A stretch of 61,501 nt of DNA from Deltaproteobacteria bacterium (lineage in GTDB: Bacteria; Desulfobacterota; Syntrophobacteria; BM002): contig JAJDNL010000197.1 in the NCBI GenBank assembly GCA_022340745.1, positions 1 to 61,501 on the forward strand, read 5' to 3'. Under the pieces are notes generated by a model, which was not told the origin of the DNA, searched no databases, and was given only the letters and a program-made list of their open reading frames with translations. This document shows, piece by piece, positions 3,486 through 32,408 of the stretch. Numbering within the stretch: position 1 is the first letter of the stretch; each line of letters opens with the position of its first letter. The translations under genes and the position numbers were made by a program.

Positions 3486-3686
3486 ATGAAAACTGACCCA
3501 CAGACTAAGTGCAGCAGTTGTGGAGCCCGCTATTCCTTCGTGGCACTGGGCAGGAGAGAGTATTTTATTCCTTGGGGGTCACATTGTCTCTGTGATAAGT
3601 GCCATAGGTTCTCTATCATGGAAGCATTTAAAACTGGGCTAAAACGGCCGTTTGAACCTCTCAAACGATATGGTGATATTCGCTAA
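3486..3686 (+). CDS. Small Cys-rich protein (CxxC...CxCxxC, zinc-ribbon-like), function unknown
   Basis: An AAGGAG sits 8 nt upstream of the ATG at 3486. The Cys motifs are CSSCG and CLCDKCH. Confidence 0.4.
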   Translation: MKTDPQTKCSSCGARYSFVALGRREYFIPWGSHCLCDKCHRFSIMEAFKTGLKRPFEPLKRYGDIR

Positions 3687-4408: not shown

Positions 4409-4580
4409 GAACAATGGGGTGAGCAGTCCAACTGTGGCTAAAGTATGCTCGCCTGCAAAGCCGCATAACGAGTATTTCCTTTCGACAAAGCTTCATGGCT
4501 TCCCTGCTCAATGATCCGTCCCAACTGGGAATGGACCTGTTAATAGCACTGTCGCTTTTAAAGAAGTAAAAATCTGCCTT

Positions 4581-6657: not shown

Positions 6658-8272
6658 TGCCCTTTTCCTTTCCGAAAACCAGGGAATCCGGATGCCGTTC
6701 TAGGTAATCCGCCAGGATGCTGATATTGCGCGCCGCATCCGCAAGCTCTCCCAGGGCCCGCTTCAATTCGTGACCGGTGGGGGACTCTGCATTCAGCAGC
6801 CTGTCCACCTTGATCAGTGTCTTCTGAGTCTGCTCTAAAGTGGCGTTGGCTGCAGGCACAACACTGGCATCGAGATTCTGCACCAGCTTCTGCAAATCTT
6901 CGGTGACCTTATTCAGGTGCGCCATGGTGTCCCGCAGATCGTTGCCAATCTGCTCCAGAGGGATCTTCTCGAATTTATCGATGATTTTGCTTACATTTCT
7001 GGTTATCTCTTCCAGAGGTGTTGGTATGGTGGGCAGCTCCGCATAGGGCTCGCCCCAGACGATTTTCGCGGGAGTTGCGTCGGGGTACATGTCCAGGGCA
7101 ACGTAAAGTTGTCCGGTAATAAGACTACCCTGTTTAAGCTGGGCCCTGAGACCTTTTTCCACCAGAAACTCCATGCCCTCCCGCCGGTCCATCGTTTTCT
7201 TGCCGACCCAGTCAATCTTCTCCGGTTCCAACTCAATTAAAACCGGGATGTGAAAAGCCCGCTTTTTCCAATCGAATTCCAGGTTGATGTCTGTGACCCT
7301 GCCGATTTCAATGCCCCTAAAATCCACCGGCGCCCCAACAGTTAGACCCCTGACCGAACCTTCGAAATGCAACAGCCACGGCCTCTTTTCCACATAGGCC
7401 GCCTCAAGGCTCTTCTCACGGCTGTCGTAGAGGCGAAAGGTCTGATTTTCTGGAGCGGGACTGCCAGGCTCGAGATTCGTCGGGGTATCGAAGGCAATCC
7501 CCCCGACCAACAGGGCGACAAAAGACTCGGTGTTGACCTTGATACCGCCGGCATCAACAGACACATCCAGCCCCGAGGCATTCCAGAAGCGGGTATTTCG
7601 GCGAACGGCCTCATGATGGGGGGCATCGATAAAGATCTTGATATCCACAGCCGCACCGCCTTCTTCAAGTTCGTAGGCCACAACCTGTCCCACCTTGATC
7701 TGCCGGTAATAGACCGGGGAGCCGATGTCCAGGGAGCCGAGTGTCTCCGCTTTCAGCGTGAAATGGGCACCCGGGAGCCCCGTGGTTATGACGGGCGGTA
7801 CCTCCAGCCCTTTAAAAGAGAGAGTCCGCTTGCCGGGTTTTCCTGGTTCAATACCAATATAAGCGCCGGAAAAGATCGTTCCCAAACCGGATACCCCGCC
7901 GGCAGCCACCCGGGCCCGGACCACCCAAAACCGCGTGCTCTCGGTAAGATATGGTTCAGCTCCCTTGGTCATCTCCGCGGTGACGATGACGTGGGAGAGG
8001 CCTCTAGCGAGAGTGATGGATTCAACCTGTCCGACCTCAACGTCCTTGTATCTGATCTTGGTCTTGCCGGCCTCCAGCCCTTCGGCGGTGTCGAAGGCTA
8101 TGGTGATCGTGGGCCCTTTCTCGGATACGGCCTTGTATACCAGCCACCCACCTATGAGTACCGCCACCAGAGGGACGAGCCAGACGATAGAGAAAGAGAA
8201 ACCTTTCCTGGTCTTGACTATCGCTTCAGGGGTGGACGAAGGATTTCCGCTGCCGCTATCTTGCTCATTCAT
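6647..8272 (-). CDS. pqiB: Intermembrane transport protein PqiB (multi-MCE domain)
   Basis: It has an N-terminal TM segment, repeated MCE-like segments and a C-terminal helical region. The start is set at MNEQ (8272), 8 nt overlapping the upstream gene. Confidence 0.85.
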   Translation of the reverse strand: MNEQDSGSGNPSSTPEAIVKTRKGFSFSIVWLVPLVAVLIGGWLVYKAVSEKGPTITIAFDTAEGLEAGKTKIRYKDVEVGQVESITLARGLSHVIVTAEMTKGAEPYLTESTRFWVVRARVAAGGVSGLGTIFSGAYIGIEPGKPGKRTLSFKGLEVPPVITTGLPGAHFTLKAETLGSLDIGSPVYYRQIKVGQVVAYELEEGGAAVDIKIFIDAPHHEAVRRNTRFWNASGLDVSVDAGGIKVNTESFVALLVGGIAFDTPTNLEPGSPAPENQTFRLYDSREKSLEAAYVEKRPWLLHFEGSVRGLTVGAPVDFRGIEIGRVTDINLEFDWKKRAFHIPVLIELEPEKIDWVGKKTMDRREGMEFLVEKGLRAQLKQGSLITGQLYVALDMYPDATPAKIVWGEPYAELPTIPTPLEEITRNVSKIIDKFEKIPLEQIGNDLRDTMAHLNKVTEDLQKLVQNLDASVVPAANATLEQTQKTLIKVDRLLNAESPTGHELKRALGELADAARNISILADYLERHPDSLVFGKEKGNEK

Positions 8273-8903
8273 GATTTGTCTCCATGGAATCCCAGATGAG
8301 CCTGGGATCAAAGCTCATGGCGGCAAATATGGTGGTCACCACCACCGCCGCAAAGTAAATTGCCCCAGGCCCGGCATCGATGGTTGCCAGGGCGCCCAGT
8401 TTTACCAGAGCCACAAGAATGGTAACCACAAAAATGTCCGTCATGGACCAACGGCCAATCGCTTCGGTTATGCGGTACAACCGGGTACGATCTTTTGGCC
8501 GCCATTGCCATTTACGCTGAACCGAAATAAGTAAAAAGGTGAGAATGAAAAGTTTCGCCAGGGGAACAAAAATGCTGGCAATAAAAATGACCAGGGCTAT
8601 GGGCCACATGCCGGTTTGGAGGAAGTAAATTACCCCGCTCATAATGGTGTCCGATTGGGCGTGGCCCAAAGAAGTAACCTTGGTTATGGGAAGAACGTTG
8701 GCGGGTATGTAGAAGATAAAGGCAGCGATAACCAGGGCCCAGGTTCTTGACAGGCTGCGGGGTTTGCGCTGGTGTAACACTGAGCCGCACCGGGGACAAA
8801 TCATCTCTCCCTTGCCATGAACCGCTGGGGCCTTGCTCACCAGATGGCAGCTGTGGCAGCTAACCAATGAGTTGTCTAGAGCTGTTGGGAATCCTTGCTT
8901 CAC
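8265..8903 (-). CDS. pqiA: PqiA-family membrane protein, second-half homologue
   Basis: It has a zinc-ribbon-like CHSCH...CPRCG followed by TM helices. The GTG start at 8903 overlaps the upstream TGA (GTGA). Confidence 0.75.
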   Translation of the reverse strand: MKQGFPTALDNSLVSCHSCHLVSKAPAVHGKGEMICPRCGSVLHQRKPRSLSRTWALVIAAFIFYIPANVLPITKVTSLGHAQSDTIMSGVIYFLQTGMWPIALVIFIASIFVPLAKLFILTFLLISVQRKWQWRPKDRTRLYRITEAIGRWSMTDIFVVTILVALVKLGALATIDAGPGAIYFAAVVVTTIFAAMSFDPRLIWDSMETNHE

Positions 8904-9505
8904 CTCTCTATCTCCAATCTGTCCCAAACAAGGTGCGGATCCAGGGATGCCGCCACTGCCGCCAAAACGAATATCAGTATAACAAAAGAATATAAAGCCA
9001 AACCAGGGATGATGCTTGCCATTTTGGCCAGTTTGACCGCGGAGACCAGGATGCCGATCATGAAAACTTCCATCATTGACCAGGGCTGGATAGTCCGGAT
9101 GAAGCGAAAGACCAAGGCGGGCTTCCACCAGGGCAGCCGCTTGAACTTAAGCGGCAGCAGCATGTAGAGTGTCCCGGCCAGCTGGAGGAAGGGGAATAAA
9201 ATGGAGGTAAGAAACACCAGAACAGCCACACTCCGCATGTCCTGCTTGTATAGTTGTTCTACCCCCGTTATCAAGGTAGTCTCGCGTACCAACCCTTCAC
9301 TCTTGAGCGCTAGAAAGGGGTAAATGTTGGCAACAGCAAATAAGATCAGCCCGGCAATGGCCCATGCTAAGGTGCGATCCAGGCTGTTTCGCTTGTGCCG
9401 CTGCAACACGGCGCCGCAGCGACTACATTTGGCTGCGCTTCCCTCCGGCAAAACCGGAAGTTTGTAGAGGAGGTCACACTCGTGGCAGGCTATGAGGGAG
9501 TTCAT
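8900..9505 (-). CDS. pqiA: PqiA-family membrane protein, first-half homologue
   Basis: It has CHECD...CSRCG followed by TM helices. The start is set at MNSLIACHEC (9505) after GGAG. Confidence 0.75.
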   Translation of the reverse strand: MNSLIACHECDLLYKLPVLPEGSAAKCSRCGAVLQRHKRNSLDRTLAWAIAGLILFAVANIYPFLALKSEGLVRETTLITGVEQLYKQDMRSVAVLVFLTSILFPFLQLAGTLYMLLPLKFKRLPWWKPALVFRFIRTIQPWSMMEVFMIGILVSAVKLAKMASIIPGLALYSFVILIFVLAAVAASLDPHLVWDRLEIER

Positions 9506-9712
9506 CCTCGATCTCCAACCTTCGTTAGCAATGGAGCTATCCCCACATCGGGCGCCCAAAACAATATCATGGGAGATGATCTTGCGGAAGTATGGATACA
9601 AAGAAGCTTGGTTTATTTGCCCTCTTTTTTGGCAATGTGACGTCGCAAAGGGCAGCATACCATATTTGTGCCTATGGTTGAAGCGCAGAACCGCAGGGAG
9701 ACTGTCTCACAA

Positions 9713-9850
9713 TGCGTCATCCCGGCCAAGTCTCGCAAAGCGGGACGCGAGCCGGGATCCAGTAAAAATAGGACTATATGCAAATTTCGTTGGATTCCGG
9801 ATCTCGCCCGCCTTAGGCGGACTCGTCCGGAATGACGGGTTCGGCGATTC
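9713..9850. repeat. REP-like composite palindrome (CGTCATCCCGG...CCGGGATCCAG / GGATTCCGGA...TCCGGAATGACG)
   Basis: Two internal hairpins are bounded by GTCAT and ATGAC. Relatives occur at 11774, 13752 and 56974. Confidence 0.75.
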
Positions 9851-9883: not shown

Positions 9884-11083
9884 TTAGCTCAGGGCTACCC
9901 CTTCTGCTTTTTCTTGCATGGCTTTTAGATAAAGTGGAGACATGTTGCGCAGGGTCTGAACCACCTCTTCCAGCACTTCCAGAAAGCGCTCGATGTCAGA
10001 CTCTGTGGTATCTCGCCCAAAAGTAATGACCAGGGTCCCCTGGGCATCAGCAAAATCACGACCGATGGAGAGCAGCACGTGGGAGGCTTGCAGGGCCCCG
10101 GCGGCACAAGCAGATCTGGTGGAAACGGCGATATTCTCTTCATCCAGCATGAGAACGATACCTTCGCCCTCAATGTACTGAACTGATACCGAAACCAGAT
10201 TGGGCAGGGAGAGTTCCGGATGGCCATTGATAAAGATATTCTTGATGCGACTTTGCAAACCTTCAGTCAACTTTTGCTTGAGCTTTCGCGTATGTTTGAT
10301 CCGAAAGTCCATTTCTCGGGTGGCAAACTCTGCAGCAACACCCATACCGATGATACCGATAAGATTTTCAGTGCCGGCTCGCTTGTTGTTCTCCTGCACG
10401 CCACCATCCAAGAGAGGCCAGATTCTGGTGCCCCGGCGAATATATAGACCTCCAACTCCCGAGGGCCCATAGAACTGGTTGGCGGCAAAGCTGAGTAAAT
10501 TCACTCCCAACTTCTGGACATCTATCGGGACTACACCCACCGAATCTACCGCATCACAGTGGAAGATAACCTTCTTTTCTTGGGTGATACGGCCGATCTC
10601 CTCAATGGGCTGGATGGTTCCGATTTCGTTGTTACTGTGCATTATGGTCACCAGGATGGTGTCCTCCCTGATGGCGTCAGCCACATCACTGGGATTGATC
10701 AGGCCGTATTCATCAACCGGTACAGAGGTGACCTTATAGTCCATCATTTTCAGGGCTCTGAGGGTACGGAGGATGGCATTGTGCTCTATGTTCGAGGTGA
10801 CAATGTGTTTCCCCTTCTCTGCATTGGCAAATGCAACCCCTTTGACTGCATGATTAACGGATTCTGTGCCACTGGAAGTGAAAACAACCTCTTTTAGCAC
10901 CGGGCTGTTAATCAGTCCGGCCACCTGCTCCCTGGCCTGCTGCAAAGCAGCCGCTGCCTCGTCTCCCAACTGATGCTGACTCGATGGATTGCCGTAGTTC
11001 ATCTTAATGGCTTCAATCATGGCCTCCTGCACTTCCGGCAGGAGTGGATTCGCCGCAAGATGATCCAAATTCAAAATACTCAC
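9884..11083 (-). CDS. NifS/IscS-family class V aminotransferase-fold protein lacking the PLP-binding lysine
   Basis: The SSGTES, HSNNEIG and SACAAG (catalytic Cys loop) motifs are conserved. The canonical SFSGHK(I/L)YGPKG reads SFAANQFYGPSG. The start is probably the GTG at 11083 after GAGGAGG (the ORF call is at 11098). Confidence 0.85.
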   Translation of the reverse strand: MSILNLDHLAANPLLPEVQEAMIEAIKMNYGNPSSQHQLGDEAAAALQQAREQVAGLINSPVLKEVVFTSSGTESVNHAVKGVAFANAEKGKHIVTSNIEHNAILRTLRALKMMDYKVTSVPVDEYGLINPSDVADAIREDTILVTIMHSNNEIGTIQPIEEIGRITQEKKVIFHCDAVDSVGVVPIDVQKLGVNLLSFAANQFYGPSGVGGLYIRRGTRIWPLLDGGVQENNKRAGTENLIGIIGMGVAAEFATREMDFRIKHTRKLKQKLTEGLQSRIKNIFINGHPELSLPNLVSVSVQYIEGEGIVLMLDEENIAVSTRSACAAGALQASHVLLSIGRDFADAQGTLVITFGRDTTESDIERFLEVLEEVVQTLRNMSPLYLKAMQEKAEGVALS

Positions 11084-11823: not shown

Positions 11824-11856
11824 GTTTTGTATTCTTTAAAGTCTATCGGCACACTA

Positions 11857-12036
11857 GCCCGGATGTTTCATGAATCACCTGTTGCGACCGCGGATTCGGG
11901 CAACCTTCCTGGTGTCCTCGGGTGCCGGGCCCTGCGACGTACCGTTAAGGTACGCCTCGGGACCAACACCCTGCGGTTACCAGGTGGCTCGCCCGTCTTC
12001 GCAGTCTCGCGACAGCAATTCATGAAACATTCGGGC
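11857..12036 (+). ncRNA. Candidate structured ncRNA, 180-nt rod with 6S-RNA-like architecture
   Basis: A closing stem of about 27 bp pairs GCCCGGAUGUUUCAUGAAU..CUGUUGCG with CGCGACAG..AUUCAUGAAACAUUCGGGC. Internal pairings are CCUGGU/ACCAGG and GGGUG/CACCC. The apical hairpin is CGUACC-GUUAA-GGUACG. Two G.U wobbles favour the + strand. There is no convincing ORF and no second copy in the window. Confidence 0.4.
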
Positions 12037-12431
12037 TAAATTTAATATAACACTCGGAAGGAGAAGATAAAAGGATGGTAGTGGAGTGAGAGGCTGATCC
12101 GACGGAAAAAGGGGGATTGCCATTGCCGTCGGGTGAACGCCGCCGAGGCGGAAGCCATCCGACCTACTCAGAAAACTTACATTCGATGATCTCAAACAGG
12201 CTACAAATTTTTTCTTAACGCCCACTTGAAAATATTACATAAGTTCTTAGTTTTTTAGCATAGGACAATATTACACTAGATAGTGTATTTTGCTGATTTG
12301 CTGAAGAAACGACTACGAGAACCAGTCTCACTGGTCGAGTCGTTGCCCCTTAACCAGACGCCTGCTCGAGGGGATATGGCAATGCAAGTCAGAGCTCTGT
12401 TTTCGGCTTGTCAGCAATGAGGTGATGGTAA

Positions 12432-13751: not shown

Positions 13752-13923
13752 GGCGATTCGTCATCCCGGCCACGTCCGCCTAAGGCAGACGCGAGCCGGG
13801 ATCCAGACAACGTCCCCGCGAAGGCGGGGAACCAGACACCAAATGAAGTCATTGAACTTTCACTGGATTCCGGATCTCGCGCAGCAAAGCTGAACTCGTC
13901 CGGAATGACGGGTTAGGCGAATT
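13752..13923. repeat. REP-like composite palindrome between cbpM and clpB
   Basis: It comprises CGTCATCCCGGCC..GCCGGGATCCAG, then CCCCGCGAAGGCGGGGAACCAG, then GGATTCCGGA..TCCGGAATGACG. Confidence 0.75.
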
Positions 13924-13982: not shown

Positions 13983-16628
13983 ATGGATTTCAACAAAATG
14001 ACGCAAAAAACACAAGAAGCGCTGCATCAGGCGCAAAGCACCGCGCTGCGCTATGGGCATCAGGAGGTTGACGGTGAACATCTGCTGCTGGCCTTGCTGG
14101 AGCAGGCCGAGGGTCTGGTGCCTCGTCTGTTGAGCAAGATGGATGTGCCGGTAGAAAACCTCAGAGCTGAGGTGGAAGCAGAACTGCAGAAACGACCCAG
14201 CATCTCAGGACCAGGGACCGAAGCAGGAAAGATCTATGTGACCCAGCGACTCAACCGCATTCTGATAAAAGCGGAAGAGGAGGCCAAAAGGCTAAAAGAC
14301 GAGTATGTTTCAGTAGAACACCTTGCTCTGGCACTGATGGATGAGGGGACGGCCACAGAGGCAGGGCGCATCTTTAAGAATTTCAACATCAGCCGCGATC
14401 GTTTCCTGCAGGCGCTCACTGAAGTGAGAGGCCATCAGCGGGTGACCAGCTCCACGCCGGAGTCCACCTATGAGGCCCTGGAACGCTACGGACGCGATCT
14501 GGTACAGGAGGCCCGGAAAGGGCGGCTTGATCCGGTGATCGGCCGGGACAGTGAGATAAGGCGTGTTGTGCGCATACTCTCGCGAAAGACCAAGAACAAC
14601 CCGGTACTCATCGGGGAGCCCGGGGTGGGCAAGACCGCTATCGTTGAAGGACTGGCCCATAGGATAGTCAAAGGCGATGTGCCTGAAGGGCTCAAGGATA
14701 AGACTGTCTTTGCCCTGGATTTGGGTGCCTTGGTGGCAGGGGCCAAATATCGCGGTGAATTTGAAGAGCGACTCAAGGCAGTGTTGCAGGAAATCAAAGA
14801 GAGCGAAGGCTCCATTTTGCTTTTCATTGATGAACTGCACAACATAGTCGGGGCGGGCCGGGCGGAAGGCTCTATGGATGCAGGAAACATGCTGAAGCCC
14901 ATGTTGGCCCGGGGAGAGTTGCACTGTGTTGGCGCCACCACTCTGGATGAGTATCGCAAACACATAGAAAAAGACGCTGCCCTGGAACGTCGCTTTCAGC
15001 CGGTGGTGGTGGATCAGCCCACAGTGGAAGACACCATAAGCATTCTGCGGGGACTGAAAGAGCGCTATGAGGTCCATCACGGGGTCAGGATCCAGGACAG
15101 TGCGCTGGTGACTGCGGCGGTCCTATCCAACCGCTACATCAGCGACCGCTTTTTGCCAGACAAGGCCATCGATCTGGTGGACGAGGCCTGTGCCACCATT
15201 CGTACAGAGATGGATTCCATGCCCACCGAACTGGATGTGGTGACCAGGCGGGTGATGCAGCTGGAGATCGAAGAGGCGGCCCTGAAAAAAGAAAAAGATA
15301 AGGGCAGCAAGGACCGGCTGGAAACCTTGCGCAAGGAATTGGCCGAACAGCGGACCAGGGCTGATTCCATGCGGGCCCAGTGGGAGGCGGAAAAGGGTGC
15401 TATTCACAAGGTTCAAGCTCTGCGCGAAGAGATCGAGAAGCTCAGGTACGATATCTCCGTGGCCGAGCGCAATTATGATCTCAATCGAGCAGCAGAACTC
15501 AAACACGGCACCTTGCCGCAGCTGGAAGAAAGACTCAAAGCTGAAGAGGAAATGCTGGCAAGCAAAGAGGGAACAGGCAGGCTGCTGCGTGAAGAGGTCA
15601 CAGATGACGAGATTGCGGGAATCGTCTCCCGCTGGACTCACATACCGGTTACCAGGCTGGTTGAGGGAGAACGGGAGAAGCTGCTGAAGCTCGAAGATCA
15701 CCTGCACCGAAGGGTGGTAGGACAGGACGAAGCGGTCAAGGCAGTGGCTGAGGCGGTAATCCGCTCTCGCGCCGGAATCAAAGATCCAAACCGTCCGGTT
15801 GGCTCCTTCATATTCCTCGGGCCCACCGGAGTGGGAAAGACGGAGCTTGCCCGGGCCCTGGCGGAAAATCTCTTCGATGATGAAAAGAACATGGTGCGGA
15901 TCGACATGAGCGAGTACATGGAAAAACACACTGTGGCCCGTCTTATCGGGGCGCCGCCGGGGTACGTGGGTTATGAGGAAGGTGGTCAGCTTACTGAAGC
16001 GGTGCGACGGAAACCTTTTTCGGTCATTCTCTTTGACGAGATAGAAAAGGCCCATCACGATGTATTTAGCATCTTCCTGCAGATCATGGATGATGGTCGC
16101 CTCACCGATTCCCACGGTCGCACCGTGGATTTCAAGAATTGCATCATCATCATGACCTCTAACGTGGGCAGTCAATATATTTTGGACACCACTGATACGG
16201 ACGAAGCAAGTTACCAACGTATGAAGGAGCGGGTGCTTGAGGCCTTGCGCCAGCACTTCCGCCCTGAGTTTCTCAACCGGGTGGACGAGACCCTGGTTTT
16301 CCACGCTCTCAGCCAAGAGGAGTTGGCCCAGATTGTTGATATCCAGGTGTCCTGGCTCCAACGACGCCTTGAGGATCGGCGGATTGAGTTGGAGGTTAGC
16401 GATGAGGCCAAGAATTTGCTGGCGGAGCGAGGCTACGATCCGGTTTATGGTGCTCGTCCATTGAAGAGGGTGATTCAAAAAATGGTGGAAACACCATTGG
16501 CCACAAAGATCATGGCCGGCGAGGTGCCTGATGGCAGTCGTCTGCATCTGAGCGCAGATGAACAAGGGATTGTCTTCAAAGTGACGCCGCCGGGGGAAAA
16601 GGGTGAGGCAGTTATGGAGGCAGTCTAG
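13983..16628 (+). CDS. clpB: ATP-dependent chaperone ClpB
   Basis: It has two AAA+ modules ([16 protein letters not shown]), a coiled-coil middle domain and a Clp N domain. The start is set at MDFNKMTQ. Confidence 0.97.
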
Positions 16629-16630
16629 TC

Positions 16631-16700
16631 CAGCAGGCAGCTGACGGCAAGCAGCTGGCAGTATAACTTTGCTGCCCGCTGCCTGTTGCAAGCTGCCAGC
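16631..16700. repeat. Stutter hairpin of the CAGCWGG family between convergent clpB and a small ORF (possible bidirectional terminator)
   Basis: CAGCAGGCAGCTGACGGCAAGCAGCTGGCAG is followed by a loop and then CTGCCCGCTGCCTGTTGCAAGCTGCCAGC. Confidence 0.6.
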
Positions 16701-16736
16701 TTAGTGGGTTCGCAGTGCGACTAGCTGTTGATTTGT

Positions 16737-16982: not shown

Positions 16983-17212
16983 GACAAAACTCCCTTTCTC
17001 TCATATTCAGCAAACAGTGGAGCCTTCAACTGCCAGTTTCACAAAATGTCCTGGTCCAGGGTGTTTATATGCATGATTTGGAAACAGTAGTTTATTAACA
17101 CAAAATTGTGATAAAATGAACGTACTTGATTTTGCTGATGTTACCGCATCTTGCGGAAAATGTAAAAGACTTTTGTAAGTAACTTCTTGGTTGACCAGGA
17201 GCCAGAGATTAG

Positions 17213-17354
17213 AATGCGGATTGCGGATTGCGGATTTGAGAAAAATTGAAGTACAGAGAAAAACGACTCGGGGACGTGGGGACGCGGCGAAGTAATCGGT
17301 AAGCAGTGGACGATCAAAGAGCCGACTAAACTGCTTACTGCTCACCGCTCACTG
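17213..17354. repeat. Heptamer stutter tract: (GCGGATT)3, (GGGGACG)n, and hairpin GTAAGCAG/CTGCTTAC
   Basis: Read directly. The modules recur at 18781, 52885, 55644 and 37683. Confidence 0.7.
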
Positions 17355-17382
17355 TTTACCAAAATAACTTTGGGCATTTACA

Positions 17383-18479: not shown

Positions 18480-18680
18480 TCAGCACGTTGTACACATAGG
18501 GCGACTTGGACTTGCTGGCAGCTTGCTGGTTCCATTGTCAGGAGTTCCGACTGCGAAGGTGGACATGAGTTTCTTAACATCTCCCTGGCAGAGCGGACAG
18601 TTCACGTTGGTCTCCTGCTGCATCACCAGCTTGTCAAAGGTATATTTGCACTTATCACAGTTATATTCGAAGATTGGCAT
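18480..18680 (-). CDS. FmdB-family zinc-ribbon protein
   Basis: It has MPIFEYNCDKC...CPLCQG, the typical CxxC_CxxC_SSSS N-terminus. Confidence 0.8.
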   Translation of the reverse strand: MPIFEYNCDKCKYTFDKLVMQQETNVNCPLCQGDVKKLMSTFAVGTPDNGTSKLPASPSRPMCTTC

Positions 18681-18750: not shown

Positions 18751-18920
18751 GGCATAGATCATGGAGCATAGAGGAAAATTGCGGATTGCGAATTTCGGAT
18801 TTGAGATGTGGGATGTGAGACTAAGGGATTGAGGAATTAGGGGATTTAAGAGATTTGAGCCTCGATAACGATTTACCGCTTACCGCTTAGCGCTTACTGC
18901 TGACTCCTGACTCCTGAATT
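18751..18920. repeat. Composite tract of at least six different 7-nt stutter modules
   Basis: The order is (GCATAGA)n, (GCGGATT)n, (GAGATGT)n, (GGGATTW)n, (CCGCTTA)3, (CTGACTC)2. Confidence 0.8.
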
Positions 18921-18965: not shown

Positions 18966-19763
18966 ATGAAAATAGCGACTTGGAATGTGAACTCGATTCG
19001 GGTGAGGTTGGAAGCGGTCTTGGATTGGATGGCGAAAAGCCAGCCTGATGTTCTCTGTCTGCAAGAGATAAAGGTCACCGATGAGCTTTTCCCCGTCGAT
19101 TCCTTCATGGCACTTGACTACCAAGTGGTCGTGAGCGGGCAAAAGACCTACAATGGGGTGGCCATCATAAGCAAAGGCGAGATGACCGAGGTGGAGGCCG
19201 AGTTTCCAGACTATGGGGCGGAGGGACAGAAGCGATTCATTGCTGCAACAATAGGTGGAATAAGAGTGGTTAACGTTTATGTTCCAAACGGCTCAGCTCC
19301 AGATTCGCCCAAGTTTGCCTATAAGCTGGAATTCATCCGGCAGCTCCACCGCTACTTGAAACGGCATCACGAAGCGAAAGCACTCCTTGTGTTGACTGGC
19401 GACTTCAATGTGGCCCCGGAGCCCCGCGATGTCTACGATGCTGATGAGATGCAGGGGGAGATAGGCTTCCACCCCGAAGAGCGGGCGGCGCTGGCAGAGT
19501 TGATGGGCTGGGGATTCGAGGATATCTTTCGCCGGCACCACGAGGAAAGCGGACTCTATAGCTGGTGGGACTACAGGGCTGGTGCCTTCCGGCGTGACAT
19601 GGGGCTCAGGATTGACCATATCTGGGCGACGATGCCACTGGCTAACCTCAGTTTAGAAAGCGGCATGGACAAAGAGCAGCGTTCTCTTCACAAGCCCTCT
19701 GATCACATTCCGGTGTGGGCCACCTTCGACGCCGGGCGCATAACGCAAAGCGAAAAAACATAG
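18966..19763 (+). CDS. xthA: Exodeoxyribonuclease III
   Basis: It has MKIATWNVNSIR, LCLQE and C-terminal SDHxPV motifs. Confidence 0.9.
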   Translation: MKIATWNVNSIRVRLEAVLDWMAKSQPDVLCLQEIKVTDELFPVDSFMALDYQVVVSGQKTYNGVAIISKGEMTEVEAEFPDYGAEGQKRFIAATIGGIRVVNVYVPNGSAPDSPKFAYKLEFIRQLHRYLKRHHEAKALLVLTGDFNVAPEPRDVYDADEMQGEIGFHPEERAALAELMGWGFEDIFRRHHEESGLYSWWDYRAGAFRRDMGLRIDHIWATMPLANLSLESGMDKEQRSLHKPSDHIPVWATFDAGRITQSEKT

Positions 19764-19804
19764 GGCATGGAGCATAGAGTAAGAAGTCAGAGGTCAGAAG
19801 ACGG
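19762..19804. repeat. Heptamer tract (GCATRGA)2-(GTCAGAR)3
   Basis: The sequence is GGGCATGGAGCATAGAGTAAGAAGTCAGAGGTCAGAAGACGG. Confidence 0.65.
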
Positions 19805-19927: not shown

Positions 19928-20599
19928 CTAGATTGAGATTTTTTTGAAGAACACAAGCGTGCGTCCTCCCCGGTTTCGGGGAAGTTCCAGTGAGACTATC
20001 CGACTGACCTCGAGACTTTCTGTCAAGGCGAGAGCCTCGAGTTCACTGTGTTCCTCTGTCGTGGTGGGCCCGAGCATGGCAACCAGCGTGGTGCTCGGTT
20101 CCAAAAGGGGAGAGATCAACTGGAGTAGTGGGGCCGGCCGCCGAAAAGCACGGGAGATGATGGTGCGAAAAGGTCTCCCTGCGTGTTTCATTTCCTCAAT
20201 CCGACCATGGAGTACGGAGACCCCTTTGAGTCCCAAGGTGCGAATGAGGTGTTTGATAAAGGAGACCTTTTTTCTACTTGCCTCCACCAGTTGAACTTCA
20301 AACTCAGGGCAACCGATCTTGAGTGGAATGGAGGGAAAGCCCGCGCCTGAACCGATATCCAGAAGTCTGCCAGAACTGTCTAGGTATGGAAGAGGAGTGA
20401 GAGAATCAATGAAGTTCTTAATAATGATATCTTCAAGATTCTTTATGCCGGTGAGGCTAAATGTCCTGTTCCACTCCAGAAGTTCCTGCAGGTAGAGCCA
20501 GAAGAGCTGAACGTGCTGCGCCCCCAGGGAGACGCTCACCTCCTGAGACGCCTGCAGAAACAAACGGGTGAATCTGTCTCTGTCCACCTTATTTCCCAA
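19928..20599 (-). CDS. rsmG: 16S rRNA m7G527 methyltransferase RsmG
   Basis: It has a SAM motif (LLDIGSGAGFPSIPLKI) and follows mnmE. Confidence 0.9.
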   Translation of the reverse strand: MGNKVDRDRFTRLFLQASQEVSVSLGAQHVQLFWLYLQELLEWNRTFSLTGIKNLEDIIIKNFIDSLTPLPYLDSSGRLLDIGSGAGFPSIPLKIGCPEFEVQLVEASRKKVSFIKHLIRTLGLKGVSVLHGRIEEMKHAGRPFRTIISRAFRRPAPLLQLISPLLEPSTTLVAMLGPTTTEEHSELEALALTESLEVSRIVSLELPRNRGGRTLVFFKKISI

Positions 20600-21983
20600 T
20601 GCAAAATCGACTAAAAATCTGATCCAATAAATCTTCGGTTGTGGTCAACCCAACAATCTCTCCCAGATGAGCTAAAGCCTCTTGCACTTCAAAGGCGATG
20701 AGTTCTGGGGAAGACTGATCATCAAGCAATTCCAGCCCTCGGTTCACTGCCTCCAAACTTCGCTCCAAGCACAATTTATGCCGCAGGTTGGGCGCTACTA
20801 TAGAGGTCTCTGTATCGAGCCGCCCCCCAAGAATGGAGAGAAAAACGGCGTCCTTCAATTCTTCCATACCATCGCCATAAAGTGCAGAGGTTTCCACGAT
20901 GGTCTCTTCAGGAAAATGGTCCCTGACTGCGACAAAATCAGGATGAGATTCAAGGTCTACCTTATTCAGGACAATAAGCCTCGGTTTGTTGCCAATATCT
21001 TTGTAGATCTGATGATCCTCAGGTGCTAGTGGGACACTTCGGTCCAACAGGAACAGTACCAGGTCAGCCTGAGCCAACCGTTCTCTGGTAAACTCCATGC
21101 CCAGTTTCTCCACAAGCTCCTCAGCCTGGCGCAGACCGGCGGTATCCATGAGCCTCAAAGGAATTCCTCGCAGGCTAAAGGATTCTTCAATAACGTCGCG
21201 GGTGGTACCAGGAACGGGAGTGACCAGGGCACGGTTTGAGCGCAGGAGCTTATTGAGCAAACTAGATTTTCCAACATTAGGCTTGCCGGCGATGATTACC
21301 GCTAGACCCTCCCGCAAGATACGACCATCCTCATAGTGCTCCAGTAATTGGGTTATGGAATCCTGTACCTGCTGACGCAAACGTGTGGCCAGATCTTCGC
21401 CCGCCACAATTTCCACGTCCTCATCCGGAAAATCGATGGCTGCCTCAAGCATGGCAAGAATGTCCAAGAGGTGGCCACGCAGTTCTGTGATGATGGTTTG
21501 CAGCCCGCCTTTTAGGTGCTCGCTGGCAAGGTCTAGACTTCTTCTGGTCTTTGATTGAATCAAATCTAGAACCGCCTCAGCCTGGGTCAAGTCAATGCGC
21601 CCGTTTAGGAAGGCACGACGGGTGAACTCTCCAGGTTCTGCCAACCGGGCACCAGTCCGAATCACCAGGTCTAGAATGCGGTCTAGCACAGCGAAGCCGC
21701 TGTGACAATTGATTTCGACCACGTCTTCCCGGGTGTAGGTAGAGGGTGCGCGCATGAAGCTGACAAGCACTTCATCCACGGTGTTTCCAGTGTTGGGGGC
21801 AACGATGTGGCCGTGATAAAGGTGGTGGGATTGTATGGTTTCCAGAGAACCGGATTGGTCAAACAGTCGGCGGCCAATAGCCCAGGCCTCAGGGCCACTG
21901 ATTTTTATGATGCCGATACCGCCAGCGCCTATGGGGGTGGCGATGGCGGCAATGGTATCCTCGAAGGACTGGCAAAGTTTCAT
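20589..21983 (-). CDS. mnmE: tRNA modification GTPase MnmE
   Basis: It has DTIAAIATP, a G domain (GKPNVGKSSLLN, DTAG, NKVD) and a C-terminal CIGK. Confidence 0.95.
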   Translation of the reverse strand: MKLCQSFEDTIAAIATPIGAGGIGIIKISGPEAWAIGRRLFDQSGSLETIQSHHLYHGHIVAPNTGNTVDEVLVSFMRAPSTYTREDVVEINCHSGFAVLDRILDLVIRTGARLAEPGEFTRRAFLNGRIDLTQAEAVLDLIQSKTRRSLDLASEHLKGGLQTIITELRGHLLDILAMLEAAIDFPDEDVEIVAGEDLATRLRQQVQDSITQLLEHYEDGRILREGLAVIIAGKPNVGKSSLLNKLLRSNRALVTPVPGTTRDVIEESFSLRGIPLRLMDTAGLRQAEELVEKLGMEFTRERLAQADLVLFLLDRSVPLAPEDHQIYKDIGNKPRLIVLNKVDLESHPDFVAVRDHFPEETIVETSALYGDGMEELKDAVFLSILGGRLDTETSIVAPNLRHKLCLERSLEAVNRGLELLDDQSSPELIAFEVQEALAHLGEIVGLTTTEDLLDQIFSRFCIGK

Positions 21984-22019
21984 CGTCCCGGAACCACTGG
22001 GCCCGGATGGAGGTTGGGC

Positions 22020-22691
22020 CTATGAGTTACGTGATGTGGTCTGTTTTCCTCCAGCGTGTTCTTTTCTCACGGGAAAGACCACCACTTTACGCAAGGCCCC
22101 ATCCCCCTTGCTTTTGGTCCGCACTTTGCGATCGTCCTTTAAGGCCAGGTGAATGATGCGACGGTCGTATGAGCTGAGGGGGCTGCTGGCTGCCGGTTTG
22201 CCAGATTTCTTAGCGCGGTTTCCCAAATTCAGAGCCACCTCGGTAAGGGCCTTGCGTCGCCTCTCCCGATAATTTTCTGTATCCACCACAATATGGGCCT
22301 TTTTGGATGCTCGCCGATTGTAAATCTTGTTGACAATGAACTGCAAAGATTGCAAGGTCTGGCCTCGTTTTCCTATGAGCAGGCCGGAGCCGTTGCTCGA
22401 TATGTCCAATTTGATCCGGTCCTCGGCCCACGTAGCTTGCACAGTAGTTGGAACCTGGATGTAAGCGAGAATGGTTTCCAGAATTTCTCTCGCTTCTGCA
22501 AGCGGAGTATCATCGCCGGATTCTTTTGGAGACACCAGGATCTTTGCTTGTCTGGTACCAATGCCGAAGATGCCGGATGAACCTTGGGAAACAATTTCAA
22601 TCTCCAGCTGGTCCGCGGTAAGGTCTAGACGTTGACACGCAGTTTCAATGGCCTCCTCAACTGATTTTCCTTCTATTTCCATGGTAGACAT
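22020..22691 (-). CDS. jag: Jag-family RNA-binding protein (KH + R3H)
   Basis: It has a Jag_N-like N-terminus, a KH-like IGKRGQTLQSLQ and an R3H-like region. It sits between yidC and mnmE. Confidence 0.85.
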   Translation of the reverse strand: MSTMEIEGKSVEEAIETACQRLDLTADQLEIEIVSQGSSGIFGIGTRQAKILVSPKESGDDTPLAEAREILETILAYIQVPTTVQATWAEDRIKLDISSNGSGLLIGKRGQTLQSLQFIVNKIYNRRASKKAHIVVDTENYRERRRKALTEVALNLGNRAKKSGKPAASSPLSSYDRRIIHLALKDDRKVRTKSKGDGALRKVVVFPVRKEHAGGKQTTSRNS

Positions 22692-22760
22692 GGTTTCCTC
22701 CGAAATCCACAAACCAAGCAACACGAATATGCTCTCAGTAACAGTCAACAGCGGACGCAA

Positions 22761-24437
22761 TCAGGCTGCGTGCTTGTTGATGTAATACTGTTGACCAACG
22801 GACAGAACGTTGTTGACGAGCCAGTAAAGCACCAGACCGCTCGGAAAGTTTATGAAAAAGAAGGTGAAGACCACAGGCATCATCATCATCATCTTCTCCA
22901 TCTTGGGGTCACCGCCGGTGGGTGACATCTTCTGTTGGACATACATGGAAATGCCCATGAGAATGGTTAGTATAGGAAGTCCGTTACCAAGATAAGGGAT
23001 TTGGACTCCTATCGGAAACCGATCCGGCGCTGACAGATCATTAATCCACCAGAAGAAGGGAGCATGACGCAGAGCTATGGAGCTATAGAGCAGCCGATAT
23101 AAGGCAAAGAAAACCGGAATCTGCAAGACCATAGGCAAGCAGCCTCCCACTGGGTTTACCTTATGGGTCCGGTACATTTGCATGATCTCTTGGTTCAACT
23201 TTTCTTTGTCATCTTTATATTTTTCCCTTATTTTTTGCATTTTTGGCTGAAGTTTCTTCATTGCCCTCATGGACACATAGCTCTTATGGGTGAGGGGCCA
23301 GAAAAGAATCTTGATGAGCAGAGTTAGTAAGATGATAGCCACCCCGTAGTTGTGGAGATAACGGTAGAAGAACTTCAGACAGACAAGAAGTGGTTGAGCA
23401 ATGACATCAAACCAACCAAAATTAACTGCTTTGGCAAGCTTGGGGTCAGCATCCTTCAGAGTGTTTACCACCTTGGGTCCAAAGTAAAGCTTGTAGCTAA
23501 ATTTCTGTTGGACCCCAGGTTGAAGAGCTACTTTAGGGCCAATTAAGGTAACCTCCACCATCTGGGTAGCTGTATCCAGAGCCTCCAATTGAGCGTGATT
23601 GGGAGTTAGCTCAACAGGTAGCAGGGCCATAATAAAGTACTGGCCAGTGTAGGAAACCCAATCGATGGGACCAGGAAATTTCTCTTCCCCTTTGATCTTT
23701 TTAAATTTCACATTTTTCAGTTCATTGTTTATCAATAAAGCGGGCCCTTGAAAGGTGTAGCGGCTTCCGGTCCCGGCGGAGATGGGCTGACTAATGAGGC
23801 TGAGCGTGGGGGCATTTTCCCAAGGCTGATTGCCCAGGTTCTCAACGCTCACGGTGAGATCGATCAGGTAGGTGTCCGCGATGAAATGGTACTGACGAGT
23901 AATGCGCAACCAACCTGGGGCTTCATAGCTGAAGGTAAGGGTGTGGTTTTGGCCCTCGCCGACCGTCACAGACGTTTTGCTGTCTGCCACATAAGGGGCC
24001 AAATTCAGCGCTGCGACCGGGCGATCTACAAAATTGAATGCCAGAGGCAAATCCTCGATTTTGCTCGTCTTGACCAATTCTTTCCCCGGCGAATCTTTCT
24101 CTATGGTTTCCCGATATTTTTTAAGAACAAAACTCCTGAGCCGCGCTCCGGTTTCCGTGAACACCGCACGGTAGAGCGGGGTTTCTACCGTCACGTCCCT
24201 CGCTGTGTGAGCAGTTGGAGTTGGGAGAGAAGGTGCTGAAGGTGTGGGAGCTTCACTTGGGGGGATTTCAGGAACCGGAGGTTTTGCCTGGTCAGGCTTA
24301 GTTGGGGCCGTGGGAGCCTGCTCAACCGGAGGTGAGGCACTAGGTGGTGCCGGCTGCCTTTTCGGGAGGAAAAACTTCTCCCACAAAACCAGCACGATGA
24401 TACAGAGTACTATCGCCAACAAGACGCGTTTTTCCAT
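22761..24437 (-). CDS. yidC: Membrane protein insertase YidC
   Basis: It has an N-terminal TM segment, a Pro-rich linker, a large periplasmic domain and a conserved 60-kDa IMP core (MQKIREKYKDDKEKLNQE, GCLPMVLQIPVFFALY). Confidence 0.95.
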   Translation of the reverse strand: MEKRVLLAIVLCIIVLVLWEKFFLPKRQPAPPSASPPVEQAPTAPTKPDQAKPPVPEIPPSEAPTPSAPSLPTPTAHTARDVTVETPLYRAVFTETGARLRSFVLKKYRETIEKDSPGKELVKTSKIEDLPLAFNFVDRPVAALNLAPYVADSKTSVTVGEGQNHTLTFSYEAPGWLRITRQYHFIADTYLIDLTVSVENLGNQPWENAPTLSLISQPISAGTGSRYTFQGPALLINNELKNVKFKKIKGEEKFPGPIDWVSYTGQYFIMALLPVELTPNHAQLEALDTATQMVEVTLIGPKVALQPGVQQKFSYKLYFGPKVVNTLKDADPKLAKAVNFGWFDVIAQPLLVCLKFFYRYLHNYGVAIILLTLLIKILFWPLTHKSYVSMRAMKKLQPKMQKIREKYKDDKEKLNQEIMQMYRTHKVNPVGGCLPMVLQIPVFFALYRLLYSSIALRHAPFFWWINDLSAPDRFPIGVQIPYLGNGLPILTILMGISMYVQQKMSPTGGDPKMEKMMMMMPVVFTFFFINFPSGLVLYWLVNNVLSVGQQYYINKHAA

Positions 24438-24580
24438 ACTCTAAAGCTCCTGCGACAGATGAGAAAGTTCGGCCCAGTCAATTCAAGTACATGTATGGAC
24501 CAGCCCTTTGAATCCGGACTGATTCAGAGCAGAAATAACCGCTAGCGCTCCACTGAGTGACGGGCATAGAGGTCTTCTGA

Positions 24581-24802
24581 TCACCGGTGGTTATCAATTG
24601 GGTCGTAACCGCCAGCATGCAACGGATGGCAACGCAGAAGGCGTCGGGAGGCAAGTACCAGGCCTCGACCCACACCGAATGTGGTAATGGCCTGGTGAGC
24701 AAATTCAGAACACGTGGGGGTAAAACGGCAGGATGGGCCTAACCATGGCGAAATGAAGATCTGGTAAGCTCGAATACAGGCGAGCAAAAATGCTTTAATC
24801 AT
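24581..24802 (-). CDS. yidD: Membrane protein insertion efficiency factor YidD
   Basis: It has the motif [23 protein letters not shown]. Confidence 0.9.
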
Positions 24803-25185
24803 ATGCAGTTGTTTCTAATGAGCACGGCTGCTAATTCCTCGCGCACGTCATGATAAGCAAGCGTTGCCGCGTCTTTTTTAGCTACTATCACCACGTCATG
24901 TGATGGTGGCAACTTGTGCTTATGTAAACGAAAAAACTCGCGAAGGCAGCGTTTAACTTGATTTCGCTTGACTGCGTTTCCTACCTTCTTGCCAACAGTG
25001 ACCCCCAGACGCGAAAACTTTAGTCCATTTGGCCGCAGGATGATGGTGAAGTTTTGAGTATGGCGACGGCTGCCGTGGCGGAAGGCAAGCTCATAATCCT
25101 TCCGGCGTCGTAACCGTTCGTACTTCCTGAAGGAAAATCCTTTTTTTAACAACGGAGCCGACGCCACCATACGGATCCTGGGCAA
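24799..25185 (-). CDS. rnpA: RNase P protein component
   Basis: It is a basic protein with the RNR-like motif [14 protein letters not shown], located between rpmH and yidD. Confidence 0.85.
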
Positions 25186-25225
25186 AATCTTGTTTTCCTG
25201 ACTCGTGCGATTCCGGCCAAATTCT

Positions 25226-25360
25226 TCAGACGGCGAGCCTTTTCCTCCCCTTTGCCCTTCTGCGGCTAATTACTTTCCGGCCCGACTTTGTGCGCATGCG
25301 GACCAGAAAACCATGGGTCCTTTTCCTCCGGGTGTTGCTTGGCTGATACGTCCGTTTCAT
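25226..25360 (-). CDS. rpmH: 50S ribosomal protein L34 (44 aa; absent from the ORF track)
   Basis: Hand translation of the reverse strand gives [44 protein letters not shown]. Confidence 0.92.
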
Positions 25361-25514: not shown

Positions 25515-25708
25515 AAGGGATATTAAGGAGATTTGGGATTATTGATTGGGGATTTAAAAGCAAGAAGTCAGGAGACAGTAGCCAGGAGTCAGTCGAGAAG
25601 AAGTACTCCTTTTTTGATTTTTTATTCTGGATTCTGAATTCTGGCTCCTGACTACTGGATTGGGGATGTGGGTTGTGAGAATTCAGGGATTCAGAAATTT
25701 GGGGATTC
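25515..25708. repeat. Composite stutter hairpin: (GGGATTW)n-(AGTCAGG/CCAGGAG)n, loop, (CTCCTGAC)n-(GGGATGT/GGGATTC)n
   Basis: Read directly. The right end abuts the LysR stop codon (25708-25710). Confidence 0.75.
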
Positions 25709-32250: not shown

Positions 32251-32268
32251 GTAGGTGAGGGCATACAA

Positions 32269-32408
32269 GATGTGAGATATGAGATGTGAGATATGAGATG
32301 TGAGATATGAGATGTGAGATATGAGATGTGAGATATGAGATGTGGGATGTGAGATGGAAGAGACGAGTTTCTATCCCACATCGCACATCACAGATCCCAT
32401 ATCATATC
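32269..32408. repeat. About 13 tandem heptamers (GAGATGT/GAGATAT; 14-nt super-unit) plus a partially complementary arm at 32373-32408
   Basis: Read directly. The right arm runs into the nadB stop codon (32407-32409). Confidence 0.9.

Follow-up and report, generated by a model that had tools for sequence, protein, structure and literature searches.

The window analysed here is a stretch of 61,501 nt from contig JAJDNL010000197.1 of a Deltaproteobacteria bacterium (GCA_022340745.1), in which tandem arrays of imperfect heptanucleotides (heptamers) recur in the spacers between genes. An earlier note on this DNA, made from the letters alone, drew attention to a tract of such arrays at 18751-18920. 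In the gene map, which was checked with Pfam, this flagged tract lies in a divergent spacer:

18481-18680, minus strand: Zn_ribbon_8 gene
18751-18920: flagged tract, six concatenated imperfect heptamer arrays, direct only
18966-19763, plus strand: xthA

The first array of the flagged tract is composed of GGCATAG/ATCATGG/AGCATAG and is followed by (ATTGCGG)x3.4, (TGRGATG)x3, four to five GGGATTW-type units of 7-8 nt each, (TTACCGC)x4, and (TGACTCC)x3. Six arrays are thus read in the 170-bp tract, which had been described as a concatenation of at least six heptamer modules. The closest relatives of XthA, which adjoins the tract, share 76-91% of its amino acids and come from metagenome-assembled genomes (MAGs) of Syntrophobacterales, Syntrophobacteria, Desulfobacterota, or Deltaproteobacteria, in agreement with the delta-proteobacterial context that had been supposed. 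Two of these MAGs are complete chromosomes (CP070843.1 and CP070735.1), and gene order around xthA is kept in these relatives.

Excess of Period 7 and Confinement to Spacers

Tandem Repeats Finder reports 70 rows for the window, including 37 with period 7 and nine with period 14, and the arrays have a median size of 3.7 units and a maximum of 12.7 units. An array holds 2-13 units, which are imperfect and mostly 7 nt long, occasionally 8 or 14 nt. Strict period-7 tracts were counted in spacers of at least 60 nt and compared with 200 dinucleotide-preserving shuffles of the same spacers: 17 are observed, whereas the shuffles average 0.07 and never exceed 2. Period 8 is slightly enriched in the spacers (3 vs. 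0.01), and periods 4-6 and 9-12 show no enrichment over shuffles of the window spacers. Moreover, on the Pfam-checked gene map the 11.5 kb of intergenic DNA contain 31 period-7 arrays, compared with one in the 50 kb of coding DNA. The period-7 feature is real and statistically overwhelming, and the earlier view that intergenic DNA is saturated with 7-nt repeats, at a level above that of shuffled sequence, is upheld by these counts. The accompanying claim that almost every gap longer than 100 bp contains an array goes too far. About two thirds of such spacers do (20 of 33, or 21 of 33 when the hairpin at 16631-16701 next to clpB, caught by Tandem Repeats Finder only, is included), and there is one array only in the first 16 kb of the window. 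The individual recurrences cited for GCGGATT, GCATAGA, CAGGAGT, GGGATTW, GTCAGAR, GGAGACG, CAGCWGG, and ACGGAC are all present at the positions given for them.

Direct and Inverted Arrays

Further direct arrays include the following, for which folding, where given, is expressed as a z-score against shuffled sequence:

17215-17354, hyp81/RimK divergent spacer: (TGCGGAT)x3.1, GGGGACG/GCGGCGA units, and (ACTGCTC)x3.6; unstructured, z +0.29
19764-19800, directly 3' of the xthA stop codon: GCATGGA/GCATAGA and (AGTCAGA)x3.3
52741-52909: GGAGAAACGGCGA units, (CAGCTGG)n, and complements of GCATAGA and GCGGATT, the latter as (AATCCGC)x3.4; unstructured, z +0.61
55592-55741, moaA/tsaD divergent spacer: (AGCGCAA/CGCATAG)x3.6, GGAGACGCGGCGA, and (ATTTTAGAC)x4.4; unstructured, z +1.50

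The tract at 52741-52909 holds modules of the flagged tract with their order and orientation reversed. The flagged tract itself folds no better than shuffles on either strand (z +0.50 and +0.65). In general, orphan direct arrays (the flagged tract, 17210-17359, 52762-52911, and 55588-55737) are joined by A-rich linkers and have no excess structure.

At other sites, arrays face their own complements. Among the 15 pairs of arrays that are no more than 300 nt apart, eight are reverse complements that match at six or more of seven positions, whereas permutation of units and orientations yields a mean of 0.58 such pairs and a maximum of 4 in 5000 trials; a common unit in direct orientation occurs in 0 of the 15 neighbouring pairs. 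These array pairs are the longest inverted repeats of the window. Their stems comprise about six paired positions followed by a mismatch, which falls roughly at each seventh position, and the hairpins reach z-scores between -3.0 and -7.4 against shuffles. The suggestion that modules recombine and often serve as hairpin arms therefore holds for the inverted pairs and dispersed families elsewhere in the window and fails for the flagged tract, which does not form a hairpin. The inverted pairs and their associated arrays are as follows:

16631-16701, directly 3' of the clpB stop codon: inverted arrays (CAGCWGG)n / (GCTGCCN)n, hairpin of -46 kcal/mol
32268-32403, between convergent nrfD-like and nadB-like genes: hairpin of (AGATGTGAGATATG)x6.4, 97% perfect, facing (ATCCCAC)x4.4
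35264-35661, 3' of cspA: inverted pairs (GCATAGC)n facing (GCGCTTT)n and (TAAGATT)n facing (TCTAAAA)n, z -1.86
39891-39917 and 40071-40101, cvpA/UPF0047 divergent spacer: (GTCCGTN)n and its complement (ACGGACC/ACTGACT)n, 150 nt apart
within 39891-40410, same spacer: (AGCGACTCGACCTG)x5.2 and a 13-mer x2.2 array
44979-45229, between ybeY and pdxJ: (GTCCGTA)n and its complement (ACAACGG)n, 197 nt apart
47933-48082, between yjeF and tsaE: (AGCAGGC)x3.4, then an (ATTTCNC)n / (GAAATGA)n hairpin
48535-48695, between tsaE and the aspartokinase gene: period-8 arrays (GGATTCAG/GGGATTAG)n facing (AATCCCTC)x6.4, with 46-nt arms

The hairpins that fold better than shuffles are, in order of z-score:

38310-38404: hairpin, z -7.37
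16626-16705: hairpin, z -4.80
58213-58300: hairpin, z -4.59
32262-32408: hairpin, z -4.53
34245-34394: hairpin, z -3.46
48530-48679: hairpin, z -3.13
47965-48082: hairpin, z -2.98

A further inverted repeat lies in the 806-nt NifU/DnaJ divergent spacer, where two 21-nt arms (11855-11875 and 12018-12038, 95% complementary) enclose 142 nt of GC-rich DNA; it could be a miniature inverted-repeat transposable element (MITE) or a structured RNA.

The base composition of some units raises the question of non-B DNA. It has been proposed for GGGAATC in Xanthomonas and GGGGAYT in Nostoc that G-rich heptamers act by forming G-quadruplexes, and the GGGATTW-type units of the window resemble those repeats (PMC4692102). 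In particular, the minus strand carries a canonical motif with four G3 runs, (GAGGGATT)n, at 48639-48665. It is, however, the sole such motif in the window, and most units (GCGGATT, GCATAGA, GGTTTCA, CCGCTTA, and others) cannot form G-tetrads, so that a G-quadruplex-based account of the arrays is very improbable.

Dispersed Families

Some hairpins are copies of one another. Family F1 consists of a left arm of (GGTTTCA/GTGTTCA)n, a T-rich loop, and a right arm of (CCTGACA/CCTGAAA/CCCGACA)n. Its five copies in the window are alike in loop and in the order of unit variants, and one more copy is found at locus L009, a relative. The F1 copies, the second family, F2, and a composite element are as follows:

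34245-34345, plus strand: F1 copy A, (GGTTTCA/GTGTTCA)x4, T-rich loop, and (CCTGACA/CCTGAAA)n, the right arm bearing a nested CCGCC..GGCGG insertion of 15 nt
38310-38404, minus strand: F1 copy B, 53 nt 3' of the mazG stop codon
58213-58300, plus strand: F1 copy C, 46 nt 3' of the stop codon of an NmrA-like gene
50189-50257, plus strand: F1 copy D, with (AGGCACT)n arrays in 50134-50257
1212-1257, plus strand: F1 copy E, partial, with a degenerate left arm, T-rich loop, and (CCTGACA)x2.4
25552-25667: F2, (CAGGAGN)n, TTTTTGATTTTTT loop, and (ATTCTGR/CTCCTGA)n, inside a GGGATTW mosaic at 25516-25707
37682-37872, plus strand: composite element with GGAGACG units, (GGTCAGA/CGACAGA)n, a hairpin at 37765-37787 that resembles repetitive extragenic palindromic (REP) sequences, CTAATTCT octamers, and (ATTTCGG)x2.6

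F1 is not restricted to the clade. An exact 22-mer of F1 occurs in at least 120 metagenome contigs; the statistics given here for metagenome copies refer to 80 loci, with 83 copies, among the matches listed. As the GC content of these loci ranges from 0.42 to 0.63 and only one of their proteins is weakly similar to proteins of the window, F1 is present in many taxa. The right arm is recognisable within 130 nt in 58 of the 83 copies. Each arm is a direct array of 2-7 heptamers, except for one outlying left arm with 12, the loops have unrelated sequences and a median length of 18 nt (range 3-112 nt), and the median hairpin z-score is -4.4. Within an array, units are more similar to one another than to those of the facing arm: left arms contain GGTTTCA 137 times and GGTGTCA 3 times, and right arms contain CCTGACA 79 times and CCTGAAA 29 times. 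The arms thus mismatch as T.C, or as G.A on the other strand. Such an asymmetry is expected if each arm is homogenised separately. A palindrome, TCTGACAACATGTTGTCAGA, recurs 5' of F1 hairpins at L092, L125, L133, L144, L147, and L151.

F2 occupies the rpmH-LysR spacer in the window and the xthA-gidB spacer at the related loci L001 and L007, and the orthologous spacer of L002 lacks it. The composite element (37682-37862) shares 83% identity over 181 nt with an element located 5' of xthA in L004. Its hairpin GTGGGAGCGGCTTTTAGCCGCGA (37765-37787, plus strand), in which GTGG precedes a GC stem, has variants in L004, in L005 (with a nested insertion in the loop), and in L008. This hairpin resembles Pseudomonas-type REP sequences, a hint of a REP system, with a REP-associated tyrosine transposase (RAYT), in the clade. 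An all-against-all comparison of spacers also revealed two dispersed families without heptamer periodicity, one at 1-126 and 36741-36868 and the other at 9715-9847, 13759-13920, and 57004-57158; the latter includes a period-27 tandem repeat (57042-57102).

The hairpin families might be non-autonomous mobile elements, comparable to MITEs or to REP doublets forming hairpins (REPINs), that are moved by an enzyme encoded elsewhere (a RAYT-type Y1 transposase or another transposase that acts on single-strand hairpins); orphan direct arrays would then be decayed or half copies. The REPIN-like build, namely two inverted arms of about 28-35 nt that flank a short, more variable spacer at strictly intergenic sites, is consistent with this proposal. 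So are the loop and unit-variant order shared by copies within a genome, presence/absence and change of locus between relatives, the very high copy number of the F1 22-mer in metagenomes, and the REP-like GTGG and GC-hairpin motif inside the composite element. On the other hand, Pfam searches detect no transposase in the 61.5-kb window, and neither a transposase nor any recurrent partner gene is found beside the 80 listed metagenome copies. Partner genes of the hairpins were sought and rejected, because the recurrent neighbours belong only to ubiquitous families (PAS/LuxR, sigma-54 activators, and short-chain dehydrogenases). Carriage of F1 by phages was likewise rejected, as its 22-mer is found in no IMG/VR contig. 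Although F1 has inverted arms, the sequences that flank aligned copies show no evident target-site duplication, and a conserved GTAG-type 5' tetranucleotide is absent. Moreover, each arm is made up of direct heptamers whose number varies and is not a fixed palindrome, and mobility leaves unexplained why most distinct units of the clade occur only once. As a complete account, mobile elements are therefore considered quite unlikely; part of the proposal overlaps with the explanation preferred below.

Relation to Genes and Possible Functions

The position of several hairpins at gene ends invites a functional reading. The arrays and hairpins could be selected cis elements, such as U-tract-independent terminators or insulators, REP-type 3' stabilisers, regulators in 5' untranslated regions, or protein-binding arrays, and the hairpins would in that case be kept by selection and not arise as a mutational by-product. 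In the window, four of the five F1 copies lie 46-121 nt 3' of a stop codon and are co-oriented with that gene, and strong hairpins directly follow clpB and separate convergent genes. Canonical intrinsic terminators are no commoner in the window than in shuffles (18 vs. 20.9 and 27 vs. 19.7), and gene-end hairpins could therefore do real work. Some metagenome copies of F1 abut a ribosome-binding site and a start codon. Cold-shock-domain proteins bind about 7 nt each, and the window encodes one:

34961-35161, plus strand: cspA, cold-shock protein gene (CSD domain, E 5e-29)

The sole convincing canonical terminator of the window (35184-35214, 13 pairs and a T-rich tail) lies 3' of cspA, and the cspA region gives a weak match to the Rfam cspA thermoregulator (E 0.05, far under the gathering score). 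Elsewhere, heptamer repeats modestly affect promoter and translation reporters in Nostoc (10.1101/2022.06.06.494920), and a role in translational control has been proposed for them in Beggiatoaceae (PMC4679880).

Despite these points, the F1 copies do not behave as oriented signals. Gene orientation was evaluated for 87 copies (83 from the listed metagenome loci, three from the window, and one from L009), in a test that rests on crude open reading frame (ORF) calls and short contigs. The upstream gene is co-oriented with F1 in 39 cases and opposed in 39, F1 in tandem contexts is sense in 19 and antisense in 17, and there is no orientation bias to either neighbour. The copies are distributed among tandem (36), divergent (13), and convergent (8) spacers, so that divergent spacers are as common as convergent ones. 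None of the heptamer hairpins is followed by a U-tract or flagged by the terminator scan; together with the lack of orientation bias, this led us to reject intrinsic (Rho-independent) terminators. The flagged tract and several others have no structure, and the periodic T.C or G.A mismatches of the stems are not wobble pairs. Pairing is therefore not optimised on either strand. With the changes of module between orthologous spacers that are described below, these observations make selected cis elements unlikely.

More specific functions were also rejected. Insulation by stop codons is not apparent, since among 91 arrays of the clade stops are present on both strands in nine, on a single strand in 40, and on no strand in 42, in line with fractions of 0.15, 0.38, and 0.48 for random heptamers of equal composition. 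A universal 4-nt core (CTGA/TCAG or GATT/AATC) is not significant: CTGA is found 5 times versus 2.5 expected in the clade and 6 versus 2.6 in other genomes, and the best of 136 four-mers among distinct units has p = 6e-4 before correction. Known RNA families do not account for the elements, as an Rfam search at E up to 1 returns only the signal recognition particle RNA and two chance-level matches.

With respect to the neighbouring genes, a near-origin-type cluster, rpmH-rnpA-(yidD?)-yidC-jag-mnmE-rsmG, is found at 19928-25360 on the minus strand. No dnaA gene adjoins the rpmH-rsmG cluster of the window, and the cumulative GC skew of the window has its minimum near 10-12 kb. A replication origin was rejected as the cause of the repeat-rich zone near rnpA-gidB, since DnaA-box-like sites number 11 against 11.5 by chance. 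PqiA is encoded in two overlapping ORFs on the minus strand (8265-9128 and 8900-9658), each with one PqiA domain, which represent either a frameshift or a genuine split gene.

Turnover between Species and Strains

Comparison with relatives shows that arrays change by whole units. At locus L003, whose XthA is 86% identical, the flagged tract is colinear with that of the window (87% identity) except for two indels, one of 21 nt that corresponds to three extra CTGRCTC units and one of 8 nt inside the array of 7-8-nt GGGATTW units. In L002, the left arm of the clpB hairpin is 14 nt shorter. At the strain level, the near-perfect (AGATGTGAGATATG)x6.4 array differs in L202 and L203, which are 99.0-99.4% identical to the window and lack a 7-nt unit and have fewer 14-mers. 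Other near-perfect arrays of the window are those at 40311-40383 and 48636-48686. The comparison of strains for copy-number slippage that had been advised in the earlier note thus yields indels of 7, 14, and 21 nt between relatives or strains. By contrast, short imperfect arrays are unchanged in contigs of 99.5-99.98% identity (L081, L204, and L205), and hypermutable contingency loci were rejected as an interpretation on this ground; such invariance would be expected if only perfect repeats slip.

Larger rearrangements also coincide with arrays. L202 and L203, two independent metagenome contigs, both end inside the 32268-32403 hairpin, with the loop in the orientation opposite to that of the window, and the final 63 nt of L203 match the reverse complement of window positions 32338-32400 exactly. 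Either recombination between the arms has flipped the hairpin, or these inverted ends are an assembly artefact caused by fold-back. L204 is 99.98% identical to the window over 5 kb and then carries a different heptamer mosaic (4994-5289 of L204 vs. 50062-50351 of the window). The whole aspartokinase-cimA spacer is swapped there, and the downstream cimA/leuA-like gene is 92.9% identical; such a drop to about 93% places a recombination breakpoint at the repeat-rich spacer. Between species with approximately 85-93% protein identity, orthologous spacers contain different modules or none, a pattern that speaks against selected cis elements. In practical terms, short-read assemblies break at the arrays (one of which holds the ends of two strain contigs), and the arrays can be miscalled as small ORFs and mark recombination breakpoints between strains.

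Distribution in Relatives and Other Phyla

All Syntrophobacterales-like relatives recovered by the XthA search carry period-7 arrays, whereas most gamma- and betaproteobacterial loci from the same search do not. In particular, the Zn-ribbon/xthA spacer contains heptamer arrays in nearly every relative, the exception being L008, the most distant one. These spacers share a vocabulary of units (GCGGATT, GRGATGT, GCATAGR, GACGCGG, GTCAGAR, and CTGACTM), although the order, number, and even presence of the arrays vary among relatives. The modules are thus not confined to the window, a possibility that the earlier note had raised against its own reading; L001-L009 use the same vocabulary at the same spacers. 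The clade as a whole has at least 46 distinct units, more than half of which are seen only once.

Arrays, often in inverted pairs, are also found in Pyrinomonadaceae and Blastocatellia (Acidobacteriota), in two further MAGs, and in cyanobacteria. The xthA gene of Pyrinomonadaceae is flanked by heptamer hairpins (L017 at 3563-3651 and 4432-4538; L025 at 9901-9933 and 10770-10801; L031 3' of xthA). These are composed of (AGTCAGG)n facing (CTGACTC)n and of (GATTTGC)n facing its complement, and the CTGACTC-type unit also occurs directly 5' of xthA in the window. Most other Acidobacteria loci have no heptamer hairpins at xthA. Among viruses, (GCGGATT)3 is present in 54 IMG/VR contigs (L206-L259) whose GC content spans 0.39-0.70. 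Examples are L237, L240, and L245. Some viral contigs are saturated with heptamers: L237 has 14 arrays in 13 kb, and L240 has a GCGGATT array of 149 nt. The heptamer-array feature belongs to the lineage of the window and has parallels in other phyla.

Origin of the Arrays

As judged from sequence comparison, the evidence favours a mutational or selfish origin of the arrays over a dedicated function. They are probably heptanucleotide simple-sequence repeats similar to the short tandemly repeated repetitive (STRR) sequences, present lineage-wide, made by slippage, evolving in concert, partly spread in a REPIN/MITE-like manner, and largely non-adaptive. According to this proposal, slipped-strand mispairing or unequal exchange, acting in a 7-nt register, would create arrays and alter their length. 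As 7 cannot be divided by 3, such slippage would be tolerated only outside reading frames. The same process would homogenise each arm (concerted evolution), and the arms may stay complementary through repair that uses the hairpin as a template or because they descend from a master hairpin. Transposition of a REPIN/MITE-like kind, or recombination of arrays with similar sequences, would carry whole modules from one spacer to another. Once transcribed, the stem-loops may incidentally affect mRNA ends or stability, but any effect on transcripts would be secondary.

Several observations weigh against an origin by slippage with partial dispersal. Plain slippage leaves the preference for 7 nt over 5, 8, 10, or 11 nt unexplained, and the same is true of identical arrays in very different genomes, such as (GCGGATT)3 in the viral contigs and the F1 22-mer in many taxa. 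No vehicle for dispersal is at hand, as transposases, recurrent partner genes, and target-site duplications are missing from the window and the listed F1 loci. To these are added the lack of an enrichment of canonical terminators in the window, so that gene-end hairpins could do real work, and the crude basis of the orientation test.

A further, rather doubtful possibility is that the 7-nt register and the recurrence of units across genomes and phages reflect a specific DNA transaction, perhaps an enzyme or a property of the replisome or of a repair system, that writes or copies heptamer arrays and their complements. Such a transaction may be common to Desulfobacterota, Acidobacteriota, cyanobacteria, and others. 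If this were true, the arrays would be a distinct class of repeats with its own generating machinery. A dedicated mechanism, if there is one, would be found by a phylogenetic-profile search that starts from lineages of this kind.

Comparison with Known Systems

Heptamer repeats have been known since 1990 and were recognised in 2007 as the most frequent long simple-sequence repeats of bacteria. In the earlier note, the arrays were compared with cyanobacterial STRR sequences and were not recognised as a described family of elements. The resemblance stands, since both are tandem heptanucleotide arrays with several families per genome at many intergenic loci. The novelty was overstated, because an intergenic excess of heptamers in bacteria has already been published (PMC4679880, PMC4692102, PMC2700814). 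As summarised in two of these papers (PMC4679880, PMC4692102), Mrazek, Guo and Shah reported in 2007 that heptamers exceed other unit sizes in bacterial non-coding DNA and proposed slippage as their origin. To judge from these summaries, the repeats of the window share with theirs a period-7-specific excess, a non-coding location, and the proposed origin, and differ in that arrays were treated there as independent, whereas many arrays here are hairpin arms or parts of dispersed composites. A literature search on the exact arrays and on heptamer repeats in Syntrophus, Smithella, or Syntrophobacterales, in which the 2007 survey is represented by its summaries, gave nothing relevant.

None of the published units tested occurs as a tandem doublet in the window. 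Doublets of the STRR units, which we take to be CCCCAGT, TTGGTCA, and CAACAGT, number zero in the window. In addition, the host here is Desulfobacterota/Syntrophobacterales-like, and half of the neighbouring arrays are inverted pairs. As both lineage and units differ, the elements are not cyanobacterial STRR sequences sensu stricto.

The arrays of GGGAATC in Xanthomonas and GGGGAYT in Nostoc described by Rehm et al. in 2015 are intergenic and typically have about four units (PMC4692102). Some GGGAATC arrays form inverted pairs able to adopt stem-loops, and they occupy the same gene pairs in related species with much variation in length and sequence (PMC4692102). Inverted pairs and conserved sites with variable length closely parallel the window. 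There, however, one G-rich, quadruplex-capable unit dominates, while the clade studied here has its diverse units and the window a single quadruplex-competent site; GGGAATC and GGGGATT doublets are absent from the window.

The nearest phylogenetic precedent is Geobacter metallireducens, a former deltaproteobacterium, in which four or five tandem heptamers occur at many loci. Aklujkar et al. (2009) described GGGACCG x4 at 49 sites and MTYCTGA x5 at 16 sites and annotated them as putative regulator-binding sites or RNA elements with a fixed copy number, partly inside genes (PMC2700814). The consensus MTYCTGA fits the window units CTCCTGA and ATTCTGA (18897-18917; 25624-25650), and GGGACCG doublets are absent from the window. 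In contrast to the Geobacter elements, the arrays of the window vary in copy number and are kept out of genes. TAACTGA repeats of marine Beggiatoaceae, cyanobacteria, and Bacteroidetes (MacGregor 2015, PMC4679880) are likewise intergenic arrays, of 2-6 units, that span distant phyla without a known vehicle. They are mostly direct, often lie immediately 5' of start codons in the forward orientation, and are accompanied in some genomes by mixed assemblages of heptamers (PMC4679880). This single forward-oriented unit differs from F1, which has no orientation bias, and the window contains three TAACTGA singletons and no doublet.

The REP sequences, bacterial interspersed mosaic elements, and REPINs of Proteobacteria are intergenic, highly repeated mosaics of modules, in which hairpin doublets have a spacer more variable than the arms (PMC3116915). 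F1 and F2 resemble REPINs as inverted doublets of arms that form hairpins in many dispersed intergenic copies. REP sequences, however, have a cognate RAYT, and each of their arms is an imperfect palindrome of fixed form that bears a conserved GTAG-type end, whereas the arms of the present hairpins are variable direct arrays without an internal palindrome or conserved tetranucleotide. Because they lack arms of that fixed form and because no RAYT gene is seen in the window or beside the 80 listed loci, the elements are not REP sequences or REPINs sensu stricto.

In their behaviour, the elements thus resemble both STRR sequences and REP/REPINs. The kind, heptamer repeats, is already known; the lineage and the units are new for it. 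The reason for a 7-nt unit, the recurrence of given units across phyla, and any role of the arrays are general puzzles of heptamer repeats. For these, the clade is a compact and repeat-rich case outside cyanobacteria whose relatives include two complete MAG chromosomes, and gain and loss of whole units, periodically mismatched hairpins of inverted arrays, and copy-paste dispersal are displayed in it side by side.

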